Positions 4,949 through 12,882 of a DNA stretch of 24,433 bases are shown here, piece after piece. Location: the NCBI GenBank assembly GCA_964558635.1, contig CAZLEW010000003.1:1-24433 (forward strand). The letters run 5' to 3'. Under the pieces are notes generated by a model. That model saw only the letters and a list, made by a program, of their open reading frames with translations. It had not been told where the DNA came from and did no database searches. How positions within the stretch are numbered: position 1 is the first letter of the stretch; every line of letters starts with the position of its first letter. The DNA is from an uncultured Candidatus Peribacteria bacterium. GTDB lineage: Bacteria; Patescibacteriota; Gracilibacteria; Peribacterales; Peribacteraceae. A program made the translations under genes and the position numbers.

Positions 4949-6310
4949 TTACGGCGTGGTCGTCTCGAAGTTGAGGTTAATGAAGCTTGCGGCGGCATTG
5001 GCGCTGGCGGTGCTATCTGCTGCAAGCTTCACGTAGATCGTGGCATATTGCGCTGTGGCATTGGTACTCGCCGTCCATGTACCTGCGGATTCAGGACCCG
5101 TCACGTTCGCCGTTGTCCATGATGTACTCGCGAGCCCGCCGCCGTTTGTCAGCGTTACGCTCGCACCAGCGGTATCTTTCATGCGCACCGTGACGTGGTT
5201 ATTGGCGGCAGATGCGACACCCGTCTTGTAACGGAACTCGATCGGCTTCACAGGATCCCACGAGCTGAAGTTGTTTGGGATACGGAAGCGAACAGAGATC
5301 CAGTAATCCTGGAGTGTGCCGCGTGTCGAGGTCCAGACGTAGCTATTATCAAGCGCAGCCGTACCACCGGAACCGTAGAGCTGACCGATATAGCTCGCAC
5401 CGGAGGAGAAGTACACAGCGCCTGGATACTCTGGCTGCATCGACATGATGAGACCTGAACCGTTGTTAACACTCGTAGCCGTCCATGTGAGGTTACCTGC
5501 GCCATCATTGGTGAGGGAACCGGCACCCTGCGCTGTCGGTGCGTTGTACGTCAATCCGCGGAGTGTGAGTGCACCACCGATATTGAGCGTCGCACCTGAG
5601 ATAGCTCCTTCTGTACGGATCGTGCCGGAAGCGGAAAGGCTTTGGACCTGCGCATTACCGTCGATACGGAGGGTCGAACCCGAGATACCCCCGACGACAC
5701 TCACGTCCTTACTGAACTGGAATCTCTGGCTAGAATGTAAGTACTTCAAGGTTTGGTTAGTCGTTTGGTTTCCGAAGGTAAGAACAGCGTCTGCACCTGT
5801 CGTACGATCATCGTTGATCGTAAAGTCGCCGTCGGCGCGGAAGGCACCCGACGCAGTGAGTTCACCATGCACCGCGGCTGGGCCACTCACGCGGAGTGTG
5901 GAACCCGAGAGGAAGGTCTTCGCGGTGATAGAACCAACGCCAAGGATGGCACCTGTGACAGTCAACGTACCGCCGACGGTCGCATTGCGATCGACGTTCA
6001 ACGACGAACCCGACATCGTGCCGAGGACGCTAATTGAATGTGAGAATTGAAATTTCTGCGTTGCGTAGAGGAACTTCATTGTCTTCGTAGAAGCACCGAA
6101 ACGAAGTTCGATATCCGATGTACCATTCCCTGCATCAATCTCTTGGAATGCTTCTGTATTCACAAGCAGTGTTGGCTTCCACGAGGAGGCGGCAGTCGCA
6201 ATCTGCGGTAACACACTCGACGCAACAAGTGCGAGCGCGGTAGCAGCATGCGTCACCTTGCGTAGTGCAAGGGAAGCGAGCGAGCCAGAAGTGTGTAGGT
6301 ATTTGTTCAT
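4949..6310 (-). CDS. Secreted fibre/beta-helix-like surface protein (453 aa)
   Basis: The likely start is MNKYLHT at 6310 rather than 6430. It has a signal-like segment ending QIATAA, repeated G(T/A)(M/I/L)SG(S/A)(S/T)L motifs, and a C-terminal domain paralogous to that of 6442..8763. Confidence 0.8.
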   Translation of the reverse strand: MNKYLHTSGSLASLALRKVTHAATALALVASSVLPQIATAASSWKPTLLVNTEAFQEIDAGNGTSDIELRFGASTKTMKFLYATQKFQFSHSISVLGTMSGSSLNVDRNATVGGTLTVTGAILGVGSITAKTFLSGSTLRVSGPAAVHGELTASGAFRADGDFTINDDRTTGADAVLTFGNQTTNQTLKYLHSSQRFQFSKDVSVVGGISGSTLRIDGNAQVQSLSASGTIRTEGAISGATLNIGGALTLRGLTYNAPTAQGAGSLTNDGAGNLTWTATSVNNGSGLIMSMQPEYPGAVYFSSGASYIGQLYGSGGTAALDNSYVWTSTRGTLQDYWISVRFRIPNNFSSWDPVKPIEFRYKTGVASAANNHVTVRMKDTAGASVTLTNGGGLASTSWTTANVTGPESAGTWTASTNATAQYATIYVKLAADSTASANAAASFINLNFETTTP

Positions 6311-6334
6311 AAATGTTTGTGGAAGTTTCTGATC

Positions 6335-6363
6335 ATTATAGCGAATAAAAAGTTTTTGCGCAA
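6335..6363 (-). promoter_or_regulatory. Sigma70-type promoter for the 6310 gene
   Basis: On the minus strand: TTGCGC (6363-6358), 17 nt, TATAAT (6340-6335). This supports the internal start at 6310. Confidence 0.7.
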
Positions 6364-6441
6364 GAGTAGATTTATTGGGTGGATGATGATGTTGTAGTGA
6401 TGGTGGTGATGGAGCGTAACGTGCGTACATAAAGGAAGGGG

Positions 6442-8763
6442 TTACGGTGTAAGGCGAACATACTTCAACTTCATACTGCCGATATGCGCCTGGTAGTTAT
6501 CTTTCGCGTAGAGCTTGAATTTGATGAGGAATTCCTGCCCGGCGGTCCATGTCGCACCAGTATCGAACGTGAGGGCAGATGTACCCCACGACGTAGATGC
6601 TAATCCCGTAGCGGATCCACCGAGCGCGACTGGCGTACCGTTCGTATCGAAGAGTGACACATCCACTTTGCTATTGGTCACATCGGCAGATGTTGTGCGG
6701 TACGACACCGAGAGTGGTGCACTGTCCCATCGAGCGAAGTCAGCAGGGAGCGATACACGAACAACAACGTCATAATCCTGCAACGTCGCACGTGTCGAAT
6801 TCCAGAGGTAGAAGTTGCGCTGTGTGATGTTATCGAGTGAGACAGAAAGCTGACCCGTATTCTCCGTCGCATCAGCTTGATAGCTCGCATTCTGGAATTC
6901 AGCATGCAGATTCACTTCGGTTGTTTGTTCGCGATCATCACTCAGAACAACGCGGAAGTCATTGATCTGCGTCACATTCGTTCCATTTGTTATGACTTCT
7001 GCAAGACGGATGAATGATTCATCGGTGGGGAAGCCCGATGTCCGAACAGTGAGACCACCCGACCCAATGAAGACCTGACTCGTCGTATTTGCTGGAACAG
7101 CAACACCCGATGCACCCGCGAAGTCTGTCACATCACCATTGATACGGTACGCGCCACCCGTGATATTCACAGACAGACCCGCGCCGCTGCTTACGCGCAG
7201 CTTTCCTTCGTCCGAGCCTGCAATGCTCGAGATATCAATACCGTTGATGAGACCCGTGACCACGAGGTCACCTTCGATGCGCACGTCTGCACTAAACGTG
7301 AAGCGATCGTTCAGAATGTCGTAGCTCAATGTTTTGGCAAGAGCTTGGCCGAATTGCAACGTAATCAGGCTCGAAGCAGTGTTATTCGCATCGACCACGA
7401 AGGTATCGCGATTGGTACCACCTGGCACAACCGCAACGGGCAAGAGGCCACCACTGCCAAGGAGTGGGATAGAACCACTTCCTGTGCCAATTTCACGCTG
7501 ATCGAGCAAGTCAGCATTCTGCGCAAACGGCACCGAGAGGATCGGCGAGCGATCGATCAGATCATCCGACGGATTCACATCGAGCACTTCGTATGCCGAA
7601 TCGAGGCTGCCCGCGGCTTTTACCTCGACCTGGAGGAAGAGGTTATCGAGATCCGACGTCGCGACCGCAGCAAGGTTTGGAAGTGTGGCACCCGTACCAA
7701 GGATAACCGAGAAGTACCCCTGGCTATCAGGCGTCACAACGTGCACTTCTTGGTATCCAGCGTACATTGCCGCTCCCGTATTAATGATACCAGCGTTGAC
7801 ATCACCCGTGACCAAGTCGCGGCTGTACCATTGACTGAAGCGAATGTAGTGCGGTGTGGTGATCGCCTGACCGGATGCATTCAGGAGATGACCATTATAG
7901 ACAGTGCGCTCGGGCGACGAGACAGCGGCTTCCGCTGCTTGCACCGTGAGGACTGCAGCAATCGAGAGTGCGATGATGAGCAATGCGACGTACCAGAGGG
8001 AACGACTGATGCGTCGGCGATGCAGCGACAGCAGAACGACGAGCAACGTCACAACGCAACCAAGAAGGAAGAACAGGAGCAAGAGCAACCATGTCCATGG
8101 CGATCCTGTGCATGCGGATGCAACAGAACCGAGTGCATCGACAATCACATCGCCAAGTGTTACGCCACGATCAGTCGAACGATCGATTGGTGGAACAGGT
8201 AACAGTTCGATGCGGTGGTAGAACCCTGCAGGGCAAAGGATCGATGCACATGCATTTGTGCTGCTCACGGATGATGTAGACGAAACGGATGCCGCTGGGC
8301 GGAGCGCTTCAGATGAAACTGACACATCCTGCGAACTCGAAGAGACCGACGAAGCTTGAGATGATGAGGAGGAAGAAACTGCGGATGACGATGAAGCGCG
8401 GGATGAACGCACGGGAGGATTCGTCGTGGTCGTGCCTTCGCCACGGTGACCACCATCATCTTCATCAGACGATACCGATGAAGCAGTAGACGATGCACCA
8501 GCGCTACTCGCGGGCACAGGAGGCGCAGTCGTAATCTGGAAATTATTGCTGTGGAGCGGAGCCTCTTGGCGCCACGAGAGATCACCCTGCATGCGGAAGT
8601 TCGTCGAGCCATGCGGCAGACCTGCTGCGTTGCCCGGGCCGACTTCTTGCATTTGGAACGTCGTACTCGCAGCAGCGGACACCGCACCGATGAAGGTGCA
8701 GAATCCCGTCACACCGAGGAGGAGTGAGAGGAGGGTGCCGATGACGGAGCGATTACGCGTCAT
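6442..8763 (-). CDS. Large membrane-anchored surface protein with Ser-rich linker, two internal TM helices and a tail-fibre-type module
   Basis: Signal peptide, poly-Ser linker, then TM-RRRISR-TM. After that comes a VYNGHL.N..G...IRF...G.FSV.LG...LQVEVK...SVPFA..A module seen in fibre-like proteins. The C-terminal domain is shared with 4949..6310. Confidence 0.8.
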   Translation of the reverse strand: MTRNRSVIGTLLSLLLGVTGFCTFIGAVSAAASTTFQMQEVGPGNAAGLPHGSTNFRMQGDLSWRQEAPLHSNNFQITTAPPVPASSAGASSTASSVSSDEDDGGHRGEGTTTTNPPVRSSRASSSSAVSSSSSSQASSVSSSSQDVSVSSEALRPAASVSSTSSVSSTNACASILCPAGFYHRIELLPVPPIDRSTDRGVTLGDVIVDALGSVASACTGSPWTWLLLLLFFLLGCVVTLLVVLLSLHRRRISRSLWYVALLIIALSIAAVLTVQAAEAAVSSPERTVYNGHLLNASGQAITTPHYIRFSQWYSRDLVTGDVNAGIINTGAAMYAGYQEVHVVTPDSQGYFSVILGTGATLPNLAAVATSDLDNLFLQVEVKAAGSLDSAYEVLDVNPSDDLIDRSPILSVPFAQNADLLDQREIGTGSGSIPLLGSGGLLPVAVVPGGTNRDTFVVDANNTASSLITLQFGQALAKTLSYDILNDRFTFSADVRIEGDLVVTGLINGIDISSIAGSDEGKLRVSSGAGLSVNITGGAYRINGDVTDFAGASGVAVPANTTSQVFIGSGGLTVRTSGFPTDESFIRLAEVITNGTNVTQINDFRVVLSDDREQTTEVNLHAEFQNASYQADATENTGQLSVSLDNITQRNFYLWNSTRATLQDYDVVVRVSLPADFARWDSAPLSVSYRTTSADVTNSKVDVSLFDTNGTPVALGGSATGLASTSWGTSALTFDTGATWTAGQEFLIKFKLYAKDNYQAHIGSMKLKYVRLTP

Positions 8764-8766
8764 GGG

Positions 8767-9324
8767 TTAAGAAGCGAGTGGGTCAATCGGATGTAACGGA
8801 GAAAAAGCGGCAGTGCCGGATACTTCCAGATCGGAAGCGGACGGCGCGCCAAAATGATCACGGAGCGGAGCTGACTGACGCTTCTGCTCGTGTGACTTCG
8901 TTGCTGCAAAGAAGAAACCGTACCGTGCAATCGTGCGGCCAACGCTGGATGCAGAAATCGAAACGCCGTACTGCCGCTTGAGTAATTCTGCAATCGCATC
9001 CTTGCCAAGCAGCGGCTGCTCACGGCGGACATCACGAATCAACGTGACGATGTGCTCAGCGATCTCTGGTTCGCGCACACGATGTGGGCGACGCGACTCC
9101 TCCTCGATCGTTCGAATATCACGAACATCAAAACGTTCTGCCCATCGCAAGAACGTCGAACGTGCGATACCAAAATGGCGACACGTAAGACTCACGTTGC
9201 TTTCATGTTCGAGTGCGTATGAAAACCACTTCAAACGTTGCACTGCATCTTCACTCAGCTCCAGCTCTTTCGCCCGCTTGAGCAGGTGACGAACATCCCG
9301 AAGGCGAATGGTCCACGAATGCAT
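8767..9324 (-). CDS. IS481/IS3-type helix-turn-helix DNA-binding protein lacking the DDE/integrase core
   Basis: RLKWFSY....NVSLTCRHFGIARSTFLRWAERFD...EESRRPHR...IRDVRREQPLLGK..I..LL..YGVSISASSVGRTI is a tandem-HTH transposase N-terminus. The ORF ends at 185 aa with no catalytic region. Its stop is 3 nt before the next ATG (TAACCCATG). Confidence 0.75.
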   Translation of the reverse strand: MHSWTIRLRDVRHLLKRAKELELSEDAVQRLKWFSYALEHESNVSLTCRHFGIARSTFLRWAERFDVRDIRTIEEESRRPHRVREPEIAEHIVTLIRDVRREQPLLGKDAIAELLKRQYGVSISASSVGRTIARYGFFFAATKSHEQKRQSAPLRDHFGAPSASDLEVSGTAAFSPLHPIDPLAS

Positions 9325-9375
9325 GAATATTTTTTTGTGTGTTGGGTCCGCGCGCGTACGCGAAAGACTCTCAAT

Positions 9376-9404
9376 ATTGTAGCACCTTTAAATATTTTCG
9401 TCCA
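9376..9404 (-). promoter_or_regulatory. Promoter of the HTH/surface-protein operon
   Basis: On the minus strand: TGGACG (9404-9399), 17 nt, TACAAT (9381-9376), with an extended -10 TG at 9384-9383. Confidence 0.65.
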
Positions 9405-9407
9405 GTA

Positions 9408-10672
9408 CCGTCGAGATGTATCTGACCATAGGCTTGCTCATGCGGCGCTTGATGTGAGAACGAGACGACAAGCAATCGACGCGCATGTATCGGAACATCG
9501 CCCAATGCGATACAAAACCATACGAAGTACATATGACGATTCACGCCCTAACTGACGCGGGGTTGTTAGAACAAAGCTCTAACCATAGCGACAAATCACC
9601 TACTACACGGATAGGAACACAACATGCCTGGATGTATCGGAACCTTACGCAATCAGCTAATGCGGTACAGTGGTATTATCACATCACATAGTTGATTCGG
9701 CGTCCAATGAGCAAATCGCATTGTGTACTAGCCAATAAAAGCATGAAGTACTCTTCATACATGATTCATGTGAAAAGTATAGAAATACATGATGCACATG
9801 CATCGGAACATGCGGCAGTCCTGCGACGTCATTGCACAGTGGATGTGATCAACTTCGCCCGTTCTGTTCTGGGTGTACCCGAACACATAGCACACAGTAA
9901 CAAACACAACGTCAAGCCGGGATATTACACCGATTGTCGCGGATGTATCGTGACACGTGTCCTTGCGCAGACATACAATTTTTTCGCTCTACGAAGCCCT
10001 ACTGTCGTGGACGTATCGGAACATATGTTTATATAAATGACACAATAAAGCATATACTGCAAGACAACGTACTCACGTCGCTGCAGGAAGAGCTATTTCA
10101 CCTGTGAGAAGGGTATCGCAGATGTATCAGAACTTTCCGCAGATATACAGTATACTGCACAAGCAAGCTGCATGGATCACTCCTCCTGCATCTAGTAGAC
10201 AAGATGCATCGCGTACGAACCGAAGAACACGCCGAGGGAGACTCCTCCAATTCCAACGTACAACACGTGTCGCGCATGTATCAGAACATGTCGCACACCT
10301 ACGATGTCATGACACAGCAAATGTACCATACTCAGCATGAGATGTAGCGCTTGTACCTGAACGTATGGCGTAATCTTGAACTCTAGAGCCTCACTTACGT
10401 CTATTCCATTCATTGTCGCGGATGTGTCGTGAACCATGGCCCTAACTTGGGATGCAAGAGTGTCGCTCTCCAAATGTCTGCTGTAGCAGATGTATCTGAA
10501 CAAATCGAAACTCTGTTTTACCGCAATAGAAACGCCGGGTGCATCGTATGTTTCGAAACATGTGTTCGAAGAACGCGCATTCAATTCCACTCAACAATCA
10601 TACAAACATCTTTAGCGCTTCCATCAGGACTAAACGGCATGCACCCCCTCTGTTGCGGATGTATCGGAACAT
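9408..10672 (+). repeat. Non-coding array of ~16 degenerate direct repeats (core ATGTATCGGAACAT, extended TGTCGCRGATGTATCRGAACAT) with ~70-bp period
   Basis: 14-mer starts at 9416, 9485, 9632, 9798, 9873, 9943, 10011, 10122, 10276, 10351, 10422, 10490, 10548 and 10659, with weaker copies near 9561, 9723 and 10204. All are on the same strand; most gaps are 68-76 bp. Confidence 0.85.
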
Positions 10673-10674
10673 AC

Positions 10675-10704
10675 TTGTATCCCTTTGGCGTATTCTGCTA
10701 GTAT
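10675..10704 (+). promoter_or_regulatory. Promoter of the SLH gene
   Basis: TTGTAT (10675-10680), 18 nt, TAGTAT (10699-10704), with an extended TG at 10696-10697. Confidence 0.55.
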
Positions 10705-10726
10705 TAGCACAATTTCCCCCATACTG

Positions 10727-11770
10727 ATGGTGCACCCTTCCCGCATCCTTTCTGCCCTCACGGTCGCCGCGCTCGTCGCTGCACCACTCTCGGCTTTTGC
10801 TCAAACATCGTCGTTTAAAGATGTCCCGACGAGTCATCCAGCATCTGCTGCTATCGAGTACCTCAAAGAAAAGAATATTATCTCAGGGTATCCCGATGGC
10901 ACATTTAAGCCAGAAGCAAAAGTAAACCGCGCAGAAGCACTGAAGATCATCGTGGCACCATACGTTACGCCAGAGATCCTCGCCACAGCCAGTTCAACCG
11001 TGTACGTCGACGTTCCGACTGGTTCATGGTTTCTTCCGTATGTTGAGGCTGCCCGCCAAATACTTGGAATCATCGATGGCCCGCCAAAAGCGACAAACTT
11101 CAACCCCACGCGCAACGTGAATAAAGCAGAGTTCATTAAAATGCTCCTCATCGCCAATAAGGTTGATCCCACGACAACGCTCGGTGAAATCCGCGGAGGA
11201 CTCGCAACCGATGTCACCAATCCCGACGAATGGTTCTACCCGCATATGCGCTTCGCTGTGGCAGCGTCGATGACGATGGTTGGCGAAGATGGCGCGCTCA
11301 ACCCAGGGCAAGAGCTAACACGCGGACAAGTCGCACTATTGCTCTACCGCTTAGAAATGTTCAAGCAGGGTCGCCGTACGCAGGCGTTGCTCACCGAAGC
11401 TGAAACGGAAATTATTAATGTACTCTCACTCTTTGAGAAGAAAGATATTGTGAATGCTGAGTATGCTGCGACGCGCTCAACCGTCGCTGCACGCGGCGCA
11501 CTGATCAGTGCTCCAGACGAGGCAATTGTGAAGGGAGCAGTGAAGATCTCTGAGGGGTTCCAAGCACTCGTACAGTCGTACAAGGCAGGCTTGAGCGGAA
11601 ACCTTGATGGGGCAATCGCACTCTCGGGTACGGCCTGGAACAGCGCCGCCAAAGCCATGGAATTTAGCCCGGGACTCAATGAAGTTGCTTTACAAATGCA
11701 GAAAATTGCAAAGACCATTGCAGACGACGCTCGCGCCCTGAAGGCGAGTGGCGGCGTACCGGCACAGTAA
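10727..11770 (+). CDS. S-layer homology (SLH) domain protein
   Basis: The likely start is MVHPSR at 10727, with a signal peptide ending SAFA. SLH motifs: FKDVP..H.A..AIEYL....IISGYPDGTFKPE..VNRAE, further copies VNKAEF and LTRGQVA. The C-terminus is helical. Confidence 0.9.
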   Translation: MVHPSRILSALTVAALVAAPLSAFAQTSSFKDVPTSHPASAAIEYLKEKNIISGYPDGTFKPEAKVNRAEALKIIVAPYVTPEILATASSTVYVDVPTGSWFLPYVEAARQILGIIDGPPKATNFNPTRNVNKAEFIKMLLIANKVDPTTTLGEIRGGLATDVTNPDEWFYPHMRFAVAASMTMVGEDGALNPGQELTRGQVALLLYRLEMFKQGRRTQALLTEAETEIINVLSLFEKKDIVNAEYAATRSTVAARGALISAPDEAIVKGAVKISEGFQALVQSYKAGLSGNLDGAIALSGTAWNSAAKAMEFSPGLNEVALQMQKIAKTIADDARALKASGGVPAQ

Positions 11771-11877: not shown

Positions 11878-12882
11878 CTAAATTAAATTCTGCACGAGCG
11901 CAATCATGCGTTCCTTCTCATTCGCATCACTCTGGGCAATCAGCAACGCGAGCGCCACGAGCGCGCTATCGCCAATGCGTCGCTCGCCCCCACTCCTAAG
12001 CTTCCCGTGCTTACGCAAATACAGAACAAACAAGAGCGACCCGATGCGTTTGTTCCCGTCGACGAACGGATGATCTTTGATGATGAAGTAGAGCAGATGC
12101 GCCGCACGTTCTTCAATGCTCATGTAGAGGGGCTCTGCATCAAACGTTTGATGCAGGTTTCGCAGAATAGACTGCAAGCCTCCAACGGGCCTCTCTTGGC
12201 CAAACAGCTCGCTCGCCGTCCCTTTCTTGCGCAGGTCTTTCGCGAGGAGCGCAATCGCTCGCGCGGCTTCCGCTTCTTCAAAATCACGGAGTTTCTTTGT
12301 TGTCCGAACCCGAAACGGCAGTTCACCATCATCAAACTGATGTAAGGTCGCCCAGCTGCGGGCGTAATCAGTAATGACATGCAACATGCCCTTCGCTTCA
12401 TCCCCCGAGAGCTGCCGCTGATCCGCTGCCGAGCGGATCATCCCGACTGTTTTTTCCAACTCGCTTAAATCCTTAAGGCGCACATCGCGCAAGCGACGTT
12501 GATTGAGCGTATATCCCTTCACCAGATGCCCCGTCAGGACCGATGTCGCCCACTGGCGAAACCGCGTGCCCTCTTTACTATTCACACGGTAGCCGACGGA
12601 GATAATCATATCGAGGTTGTAATATTCAACGCTGAACGTTCGGCCATCCGGAAGATGTGTAGCAAATTTTTTCACAGATTTTTTTGGCTTCAATTCTTCA
12701 CTGTCAAAAATACCCTTCATATGACGAGAGATACCCGATTTATCAACACCGAAAAGTGATACCATTTGGTTCAGACTCAACCATACGGTGTCTCCATCGA
12801 GCTTTACATGCACTGCCTTTGACGCACCGGCCCCTTTGTAGACGACAATATTTCCTGTCGGCGGCAGATTTTCATGTAGCAT
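11878..12882 (-). CDS. RhuM-family protein fused to a Fic/Doc domain
   Basis: N-terminal DTVWLSLNQM..LF...YYNLDMIISVGYRVNS..GTRFRQWAT (RhuM); C-terminal HPFVDGNKRIG (Fic/Doc motif). Confidence 0.9.
   Translation of the reverse strand: MLHENLPPTGNIVVYKGAGASKAVHVKLDGDTVWLSLNQMVSLFGVDKSGISRHMKGIFDSEELKPKKSVKKFATHLPDGRTFSVEYYNLDMIISVGYRVNSKEGTRFRQWATSVLTGHLVKGYTLNQRRLRDVRLKDLSELEKTVGMIRSAADQRQLSGDEAKGMLHVITDYARSWATLHQFDDGELPFRVRTTKKLRDFEEAEAARAIALLAKDLRKKGTASELFGQERPVGGLQSILRNLHQTFDAEPLYMSIEERAAHLLYFIIKDHPFVDGNKRIGSLLFVLYLRKHGKLRSGGERRIGDSALVALALLIAQSDANEKERMIALVQNLI

Follow-up and report, generated by a model that had tools for sequence, protein, structure and literature searches.

An array of same-orientation sites matching an IS481-type terminal repeat between divergent HTH and SLH-domain genes in a Peribacteria genome

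Why would a bacterium with a genome of about one megabase keep a long gene-free gap that holds some 16 copies of one short motif, all pointing the same way? The gap in question (positions 9325-10726; 1402 bp, 46% GC) lies between divergent flanking genes of an uncultured bacterium assigned to Candidatus Peribacteria, within the Candidate Phyla Radiation (CPR). The window analyzed is a whole 24.4-kb contig (C3; 24,433 nucleotides), and the genome it belongs to, referred to as G000, comprises 0.96 Mb and is 93% complete. A search for sequencing runs yielded four DNA runs, from wastewater or a bioreactor, and listed none of RNA. One flanking gene encodes P0003, a helix-turn-helix (HTH) protein, and the other an envelope protein with an S-layer homology (SLH) domain. 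Judged by comparison of the sequences, the motif is the same sequence as the terminal repeat of IS481-type insertion sequences (IS), and P0003 is the DNA-binding domain that matches it.

Motif copies in the gap and in related genomes

The motif was scored with a position weight matrix (PWM) of 28 columns, on which 14 clear copies reached 15.5-32.6 bits; a further two were weak, at 8.0 and 8.7 bits, and every copy was on the plus strand. The weak copies (PWM starts 9551 and 10609) occupy expected slots and bring the total to about 16 (Table 1), and the degenerate cores at 9873, 10351, and 10422 scored 21.9-25.7 bits. All cores listed in the original prediction for this region were recovered where it had placed them. 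Its count of about 16 motifs in one orientation also stood, but its ~70-bp spacing proved not to be uniform: the basic step is 68-76 bp and the other gaps are 58, 111, 147-154, and 166 bp (range, 58-166 bp). In relatives, an extra copy is found inside the 147-bp gap (76 + 70). The copies are mutually 68-84% alike, and the 5' flank TGTCGC(G/A)G that had been described is real (recovered as repeat family D4).

When up to three mismatches were allowed, the 14-mer ATGTATCGGAACAT matched the window 13 times against 1.9 expected, a count reached in 0 of 100 shuffles, and 11 of the 12 distinct sites fell within 9416-10672 on the plus strand. Genome-wide, with up to two mismatches, the array accounted for 11 of 20 distinct sites. 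PWM matches of at least 14 bits outside the array numbered 13, about twice the six obtained with a reversed-PWM control, and the best score there was 17 bits, except for one coding-region match. A site of 24.6 bits in contig C58 was treated as chance, being inside a long open reading frame (ORF). The motif is therefore locus-specific and essentially confined to the array in the 0.96-Mb genome, not equally frequent throughout it, which had been named beforehand as an outcome that would speak against a dedicated system.

No tRNA, Rfam family, or tandem repeat of the Tandem Repeats Finder type was found in the gap. The six ORFs of the region gave no significant Pfam match (best E 0.022), and comparison of the six-frame translation with relatives revealed no frame-specific conservation; translated similarity was limited to the first ~120 nt, which are conserved as DNA (the HTH promoter region, in several frames), and to the motifs. 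A coding or pseudogene reading was rejected, as it had neither a significant Pfam family nor frame-specific conservation behind it. The earlier description of the region as non-coding is upheld by the same results, and the remnant of a repeat-protein gene, which had been considered as well, is contradicted by both the Pfam and the translated comparisons.

In a BLASTN search of the whole gap against 40 relatives, only the first 120 nt were matched, in one congener; the absence of conservation that this first suggested was overturned by the PWM scan. Upstream of the HTH orthologue, the motif was present on the same relative strand in G001, G002, G003, and G005, which are of the same genus as G000, in G014, G015, G016, and G024, which represent other genera of the family, and on the metagenome contigs L047-L050, L052, and L053. 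The search for syntenic arrays beside the HTH gene, proposed with the original prediction, thus found them in relatives with the motifs kept. Together with that of G000, these arrays or single sites were found only beside the HTH gene.

Measured from the HTH start codon, copies are located at 82, 151, 227, 298, 464, 539, 609, 677, and 788 in G000, and at 84, 153, 300, 466, 541, 612, 680, and 792 in G001, where the third slot is blank. The positions agree within a few bp in G002, G003, L048, and L050, and in L049 after a start offset of 11 nt, and the positional match spans ~800 bp in at least seven related taxa. These taxa are not near-identical strains: within the genus-level group their HTH proteins share 61-81% identity, the spacers defy alignment, and the array-bearing taxa span GC contents of 46-63%. 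In six taxa not used for building the PWM, 43 of 54 predicted slots held a motif of at least 10 bits within 8 bp, whereas shifting the positions left 0 of 53 and shuffles gave 0.01. Column identity over seven taxa was 81-96% for ATGT and T, 0.71-0.96 for GAAC, and 56-65% in parts of the TGTCGCG flank, whereas spacers gave 29%. The opening spacing of 69-76-71-166 in G000 recurs as 69-75-70-166 in G015 and as 69-146 (= 76 + 70) in G014, and it is thus kept beyond the genus. On this comparative evidence, each copy and the distances between sites are under purifying selection: because the copies stay in register while the spacers are saturated, selection would act on each copy and against insertions and deletions.

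The number of sites varies with the lineage: one in a gap of 311 bp (G016), about three in 452 bp (G024), two to three in 578 bp (G005), 8-9 in about 850 bp (G001-G003), 12 in 1547 bp (G015), and 16 in the window. In the window, part of the array is a lineage-specific segmental duplication (Table 1), whose halves align over 289 columns at 68% identity (score 123 versus 26.8 +/- 3.8 for shuffled sequences). The duplication is not present in G001-G003 and added about five slots to an ancestral array of 9-10 slots. The center of the 166-bp gap, which is common to all taxa, contains a block aATGagCaaATCgc (9700-9720) that is partly conserved in G000-G002, with the weakly conserved pattern ATGa.C..ATCgC; the block may represent a strongly degenerated site, or one bound by a different factor.

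An HTH match was absent in five genomes of the family (G008, G010, G011, G013, and G017; 95-100% complete). All five have SLH orthologues (31-49% identical), preceded mostly by short gaps of 60-260 bp, and no site of at least 10 bits was found upstream of them. Paralogous HTH modules carry 0-2 sites.

Origin of the motif and of the HTH protein

P0003 matches the Pfam families HTH_28, HTH_32, HTH_29, and HTH_33, but not rve, and it covers positions 1-111 of the 284 positions of NCBIfam transpos_IS481 (E 1.3e-19). The rve/DDE core present in the transposase of an intact IS481-family element is therefore missing from P0003. Metagenomes were scanned with an alignment of nine HTH orthologues as the query, and 80 loci were returned. 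Ten of them (L047-L056; 48-81% identical to P0003) have no rve domain after the HTH region, and 69 of the remaining 70 continue into rve, L095 showing none. The rve-bearing loci closest to P0003 are L059 and L110, with 46-48% identity over the HTH region. Both are intact insertion sequences, encoding a transposase of 355 amino acids (HTH_28, HTH_32, rve, and rve_3) that covers positions 2-284 of transpos_IS481, and both are bounded by terminal inverted repeats of 28 bp, 96% complementary, with the left tip TGT. IS481-type elements have TGT...ACA tips (PMC10045372).

Read from the inside to the tip, the repeat of L059 and L110 is TGTGTAGCGGATGTATCTGRACCTGG, and it scores 25-27 bits on the array PWM, within the range of the array copies; repeats of more distant IS clades share the ATGTATC core and score 11-17 bits. 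The array motif corresponds to the inner part of the repeat, which is the transposase-binding part; the array copies have not retained the cleavage tip CCTGGACA. In an IS the left-end repeat is directed away from the transposase gene, and the motif has this same orientation with respect to the HTH gene; array copy 1 aligns with the left end of the IS. The L059 element (1030-2222) is about 1.19 kb long, and L110 is a related intact element. The right end of both has two tandem repeat copies 27 bp apart, the inner one perfect and the outer one degenerate, ending ...CCAGCACA. No target-site duplication of L059 was recognized.

The locus itself does not qualify as an insertion sequence, since a catalytic domain, an inverted partner, and the tip are all missing. 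A pair of inverted repeats bounding an element of ~1-1.3 kb was not found, all array copies having one orientation, and the best reverse-strand partner in the window reached 11.5 bits, which is within the chance range. What was found instead is what would be looked for in a domesticated element, namely a transposase-homologous protein that is fixed and syntenic in the host lineage (its orthologues keep the gene order in several genera) and, close to its gene, sites with homology to a related transposon's terminal repeat (25-27 bits, same orientation). A tree of the HTH region placed all 26 proteins without rve on one side of a branch and the 69 transposases on the other, with 97% support in the Shimodaira-Hasegawa-like approximate likelihood ratio test (SH-aLRT). 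The side without rve includes paralogous modules of an HTH gene plus a surface-protein gene from the same genomes.

The original prediction had seen an ATGT-N6-ACAT dyad in the motif and had suggested a dimeric protein on it. The dyad turned out to occur only in the copies of this genome, and its right arm is not conserved in relatives: conservation over seven taxa drops to 32% and 48% at the last two dyad positions, versus 81-96% for ATGT and most of GAAC, and in the source insertion sequence the right arm is ACCT. The conserved motif is asymmetric, ~22-24 bp long, and its form fits a bipartite domain with two HTH units bound in one orientation. The same prediction fared better in proposing a protein-binding scaffold or super-operator tied to the HTH gene, given that the sites match the IS481-type terminal repeat and the protein the corresponding domain.

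The AlphaFold2 (AF2) model of P0003, computed from an alignment of 26 sequences, has a mean predicted local distance difference test score (pLDDT) of 85.8. It consists of two three-helix bundles (residues about 25-64 and 90-135) joined by a conserved SRRPxxxR linker; the tail after them is disordered and ends in a conserved motif, LLPxxP(I/L)(A/T)S. The best Foldseek matches, none of them significant, were bipartite proteins binding transposon ends or paired-box sites (TnsB of ShCAST, Pax5/6, SETMAR, Mos1, and CENP-B), and a profile search of solved structures gave a weak match to the RED subdomain of Sleeping Beauty (E 0.034). The predicted two-module domain fits a site of 22-24 bp whose two conserved blocks are TGTCGCG and ATGTATC-GAAC, and would not require a dyad.

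A paralogous rve-less HTH gene of G000 is located on contig C130 (1021-1900), its frame being open to the contig end. Two motif-like sites (16.0 and 14.8 bits) are present at 789-940 of that contig, 108 and 232 nt upstream of the HTH match and in the same relative orientation as the array; the nearer one abuts a TTGTAA box resembling a -35 element.

Promoters, neighboring genes, and explanations of the array

Both ends of the array border on predicted promoters (Table 1). The HTH promoter has 9 of 12 consensus matches plus the TG extension, copy 1 (9408-9429) starts 4 bp upstream of its predicted -35 box, and the -35 box, spacing, and -10 box are conserved in G001, G002, G003, G014, and G015. 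On the opposite side, the last copy (10651-10672) ends 2 bp before the predicted -35 box of the SLH promoter. Six taxa have in common the last site, a TTGTGA-like -35 box, and an extended -10 box of the TGnTA type, and the last core lies 67-70 nt before the SLH start codon in six taxa (the start in G003 is unsure). Both end sites would be centered near -50 of the predicted promoters. A sigma-70 scan gave two sites versus 3.0 expected, and only the last copy has a conserved promoter. A reading of the copies as extracytoplasmic function (ECF) sigma or tandem promoters was rejected, as the internal copies were not followed by conserved -10 or -35 boxes when inspected by eye. A near-consensus sigma-70-type promoter (GTGACA, 18 nt, TACAAT; 10 of 12 matches) overlaps copy 7 at 9950-9979 on the plus strand and points to the SLH gene; such matches occur at chance-level frequency, and this one is not conserved in relatives.

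Table 1. Features of the array locus; coordinates refer to the window.
Feature	Coordinates	Strand	Remarks
P0002, secreted surface protein	4949..6430	-	493 aa; last gene of the HTH operon
P0001, membrane/surface protein	6442..8763	-	773 aa; start 3 nt after the HTH stop
P0003, HTH gene	8767..9324	-	185 aa; N-terminal part of an IS481-type transposase, without rve/DDE domain
Predicted HTH operon promoter	9376..9404	-	-35 TGGACG, 17 nt, extended -10 TGnTACAAT
Array	9408..10672	+	16 motif slots, consensus TGTCGCGG-ATGTATCGGAAC, ~22 nt each
Starts of 22-nt slots 1-8	9408, 9477, 9553, 9624, 9790, 9865, 9935, 10003	+	9553 weak
Starts of 22-nt slots 9-16	10114, 10268, 10343, 10414, 10482, 10540, 10611, 10651	+	10611 weak
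Segmental duplication	9718..10505	+	9718-10026 matches 10206-10505; lineage-specific
Predicted SLH promoter	10675..10704	+	-35 TTGTAT, 18 nt, -10 TAGTAT preceded by TGC
SLH-domain envelope protein gene	10727..11770	+	347 aa; signal peptide; Pfam SLH, E 7e-26

The SLH gene (start ATG at 10727) is divergent from the HTH operon and is syntenic in G001-G003, G005, G015, G016, and G024. It is directly beside topA in G001, G002, G005, and G024; in the window a RhuM/Fic-domain gene (11878-12882, minus strand), which looks like a lineage-specific insertion, is situated between the two. As a whole, the locus keeps its place beside topA in several genera, a sign of vertical inheritance. In relatives, orthologues of P0002 come after the HTH gene. 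P0001 and P0002 (4949-8763), neither of which has a Pfam or NCBIfam family, share a C-terminal region, ...YVWTSTR(A/G)TLQDY.... Similar pairs of surface proteins follow HTH paralogues elsewhere in the family, which suggests that an HTH gene plus surface-fibre proteins is a repeated module in Peribacteria. At 8761-8769 (minus strand), the HTH stop codon TAA is followed by CCC and then by the P0001 start ATG in the same frame. The distance from the HTH stop to the start of the P0001-type gene measures 3 nt in the four taxa of the genus-level group and 2 nt in both G014 and G015; in G024 no stop intervenes, so that the HTH and membrane proteins form one ORF of 1008 amino acids in the order HTH, transmembrane segments, outer domain. 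The split-or-fusion observation was also placed at L044 (2285-5311, minus strand). The arrangement suggests tight translational coupling, or a split or fused membrane-tethered regulator resembling ToxR.

The explanation that we hold to be probable is that the locus is a multiplied set of sites that descend from an inverted repeat and serve a domesticated transposase DNA-binding protein; together they would make up a nucleoprotein platform over two divergent surface-protein promoters. An IS481-type element would have lost its catalytic half, and the left-end repeat and promoter of the IS would have become an operator-promoter unit; the operator would then have multiplied in an SLH-linked module, and the array would have been inherited vertically. 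One HTH protein would bind each asymmetric site of ~22 bp in a fixed orientation, and 9-16 occupied sites at conserved distances would build a large nucleoprotein platform across the 0.8-1.4-kb gap. With its end copies upstream of the two -35 boxes, the platform may set the expression of both the HTH/surface-protein operon and the SLH gene. Control of the HTH operon would amount to autoregulation, as by IS-encoded HTH proteins at the left-end promoter; going by the example of those proteins, the HTH promoter would be autorepressed. A bolder version, which we consider doubtful, would make the locus a bacterial counterpart of CENP-B and its satellite: a higher-order, chromatin-like array of strictly conserved geometry, tied to a multi-pass membrane protein through translational coupling or, in some relatives, fusion of the HTH domain, would tether the envelope-protein locus to the cell membrane and, in an ultra-small CPR cell, act as a transcription hub for S-layer and surface-fibre genes.

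Several points weigh against the platform explanation. The conservation profile was anchored on the best PWM matches, which somewhat inflates the motif columns, an effect addressed by the shifted-position control. The HTH tree is unrooted and comprises 139 columns; the derivation from an IS is drawn from the wide spread of intact elements and not from the rooting of the tree. The Foldseek matches of the P0003 model are not significant (E > 0.1, TM 0.2-0.35), although low fold scores would be expected for a model of two flexibly linked modules. Both promoters are consensus predictions, and that of the SLH gene is below the scan threshold. G016 and G024 have 1-3 sites where the platform would use 9-16, and the spacings of 58-166 bp, from which insertions and deletions are strictly excluded, have no simple helical phasing.

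The rival explanations differ in what the motif would act on. Were the array transcribed, as an SLH leader or a non-coding RNA, the motif could act as RNA, i.e., as a processing site, a CsrB/RsmZ-like sponge hairpin, or a unit of ~70-nt small RNAs, the last of which had been among the original options. All copies share the sense strand with the SLH gene, a 4-bp stem with a GGA-containing loop can be drawn from the core in this genome, and fixed spacer lengths with free sequence would suit an RNA scaffold. However, the gap contains no Rfam family, and none of the 13 folded units is better than shuffled sequences or shares a structure with the others (z-scores -1.8 to +1.2). Stem positions change independently and without compensation, the 3' half of the stem is unconserved across taxa, and many copies, like most relatives, have TGA or AGA in place of GGA. 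The sponge model further needs GGA hairpin loops and a CsrA/RsmA gene; no CsrA gene was found in the 93% complete genome, and control genomes were detected by the same search. The conserved promoter occurs only after the last copy, 20-25 nt before the start codon, which puts the array upstream of the predicted transcript, and no role in RNA is needed to explain a motif that matches a DNA repeat bound by a transposase. We therefore rate action as RNA as highly unlikely. Still less credible, and in our view extremely improbable, is that the copies are a decaying tandem duplication without function or a decayed CRISPR array. Copies that are only 68-84% alike and a recently duplicated block of 300 bp could be seen as decay, but orthologous copies remain in register in seven taxa between saturated spacers. 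In a CRISPR array the repeats are nearly identical and fixed in length, the spacers are unique and of almost constant length, and cas genes are usually present; here the repeats lack such near-identity, their period ranges between 58 and 166 bp, the supposed spacers are positionally orthologous between species, and no Cas-like family was present among the neighbors scanned. The Peribacteria described earlier lack CRISPR-Cas (PMC4736985).

Two further explanations, which we hold to be improbable to the same degree, keep the motif as a DNA site. The array could control transposons or mobility, either as a decoy with an HTH-only inhibitor or as the multi-site end of a mobile element carrying the surface operon. 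HTH-only inhibitors of transposition are known (IS1 InsA and IS911 OrfA), the ends of Mu and Tn7 carry several direct transposase sites, and the right end of L059 already has two tandem repeats. Yet no intact rve-bearing copy of this family was found in G000, where the second of two HTH matches is a paralogue of the rve-less clade; no inverted partner bounds the operon, the best reverse-strand match being the one of 11.5 bits given above; the cleavage tip CCTGGACA has been lost from the array copies; and synteny beside topA across genera points to vertical inheritance. Alternatively, the array could be a chromosome-organizing or tethering element, centromere-like or a membrane anchor, with the HTH protein coupled or fused to a membrane protein and holding the locus at the envelope. 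The gap of 2-3 nt that separates the HTH stop from a multi-pass membrane/surface protein gene in six taxa, the HTH-membrane fusion of 1008 amino acids in G024, and the likeness of many fixed-distance sites to arrays of the sopC or ram type would agree with it. Against it, no ParA or ParB, which a parS/sopC-type locus would have adjacent, was found among the ten neighboring proteins scanned by Pfam, a result that also tells against the centromere option of the original prediction; the fused form in G024 has about three sites, the largest arrays being associated with unfused HTH proteins; end copies on promoters are not required of a pure tether; and GC skew does not switch at the array, dnaA being on other contigs in G000, G001, and G014. 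An origin of replication (oriC) was rejected for the same absence of a skew switch and position of dnaA, and for a motif unlike TTATCCACA; proximity to the origin, for which cumulative GC skew had been suggested as a check, is likewise not indicated by any turn at the array. The iteron-like array that had also been offered does not agree with a period of about 70 bp, instead of ~22 bp, and with the lack of a rep gene among the neighbors scanned. In Candidatus Peribacter riflensis, short repeats, not specified further, are reported near the origin (PMC4736985), which had prompted the oriC reading; on the points relevant here, the paper on the Peribacteria genome names only S-layer genes and these origin repeats. 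An assignment to REP/RAYT systems does not agree with a motif at one locus and a protein of the DDE-transposase HTH type.

Comparison with known systems

In several IS families, HTH-only derivatives of the transposase are established as binders of the IS ends and inhibitors of transposition. Like P0003, IS1 InsA, IS2 InsA, and IS911 OrfA consist of the N-terminal HTH part of a transposase without the catalytic domain; they recognize the terminal repeat, and the left-end repeat at their own promoter provides autoregulation. These regulators reside inside a mobile IS with two inverted ends, whereas here a gene fixed in the chromosome heads a surface operon, the site has no inverted partner, and its 9-16 direct copies at conserved distances reach a second, host promoter.

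Among bacterial systems, REP/REPIN-RAYT (IS200-type) likewise combines a single-copy domesticated transposase with a multiplied recognition sequence, but RAYT is a catalytic HUH/Y1 enzyme and REPs are dispersed hairpins, in contrast to the non-catalytic DDE-family HTH protein and the single local array described here. The sopC site of the F plasmid (12 x 43-bp, bound by SopB) is similar in having regular units, each with one site for the protein of an adjacent HTH-protein gene. The present locus differs from it in being chromosomal and promoter-flanked, in the transposase-derived protein, in units unconserved outside the site, and in the lack of a ParA-type ATPase. Within the full-text literature searched, a bacterial equivalent was nowhere described.

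The domestication of a transposase domain together with its repeat is a well-documented route to regulators in eukaryotes, and few bacterial cases have been described; the locus would be an example of an IS end and promoter turned into host regulatory wiring. A streamlined CPR genome of ~1 Mb devotes 0.8-1.4 kb of non-coding DNA to the array. That site positions are kept while the intervening sequence is randomized points to a nucleoprotein structure whose geometry matters. The array is situated on the promoters of main envelope proteins in a lineage that is uncultured and probably host-attached. A protein of 185 amino acids and a site of 22 bp make a testable protein-DNA pair, and the natural series of 1, 3, 9, and 16 sites lends itself to the study of site number and spacing in regulation.

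CENP-B with its CENP-B box (pogo-derived) and SETMAR with Hsmar1 share with the locus a domesticated two-HTH domain and a short, asymmetric, recurring box; the CENP-B box occurs once per tandem unit of alpha-satellite, and SETMAR has many genomic copies of the transposon repeat. Both are eukaryotic and derive from another transposase superfamily, and their sites form megabase arrays (CENP-B) or are dispersed (SETMAR), in contrast to one array of 0.8-1.4 kb per genome between two promoters. The ends of Mu (attL/attR) and Tn7 and the IR/DR of Sleeping Beauty resemble the array in their directly repeated transposase sites at defined spacing, of which the right end of L059 has two. Those ends have 2-4 sites in 50-230 bp, an inverted partner, and a function in transpososome assembly, whereas the array has up to 16 sites in one orientation, no catalytic domain, and no tip. 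By analogy, the working principle of the locus would be closest to that of IS-encoded HTH-only regulators acting on their own terminal repeats, and its architecture closest to the box arrays of CENP-B and satellite DNA and to multi-site transposon ends.

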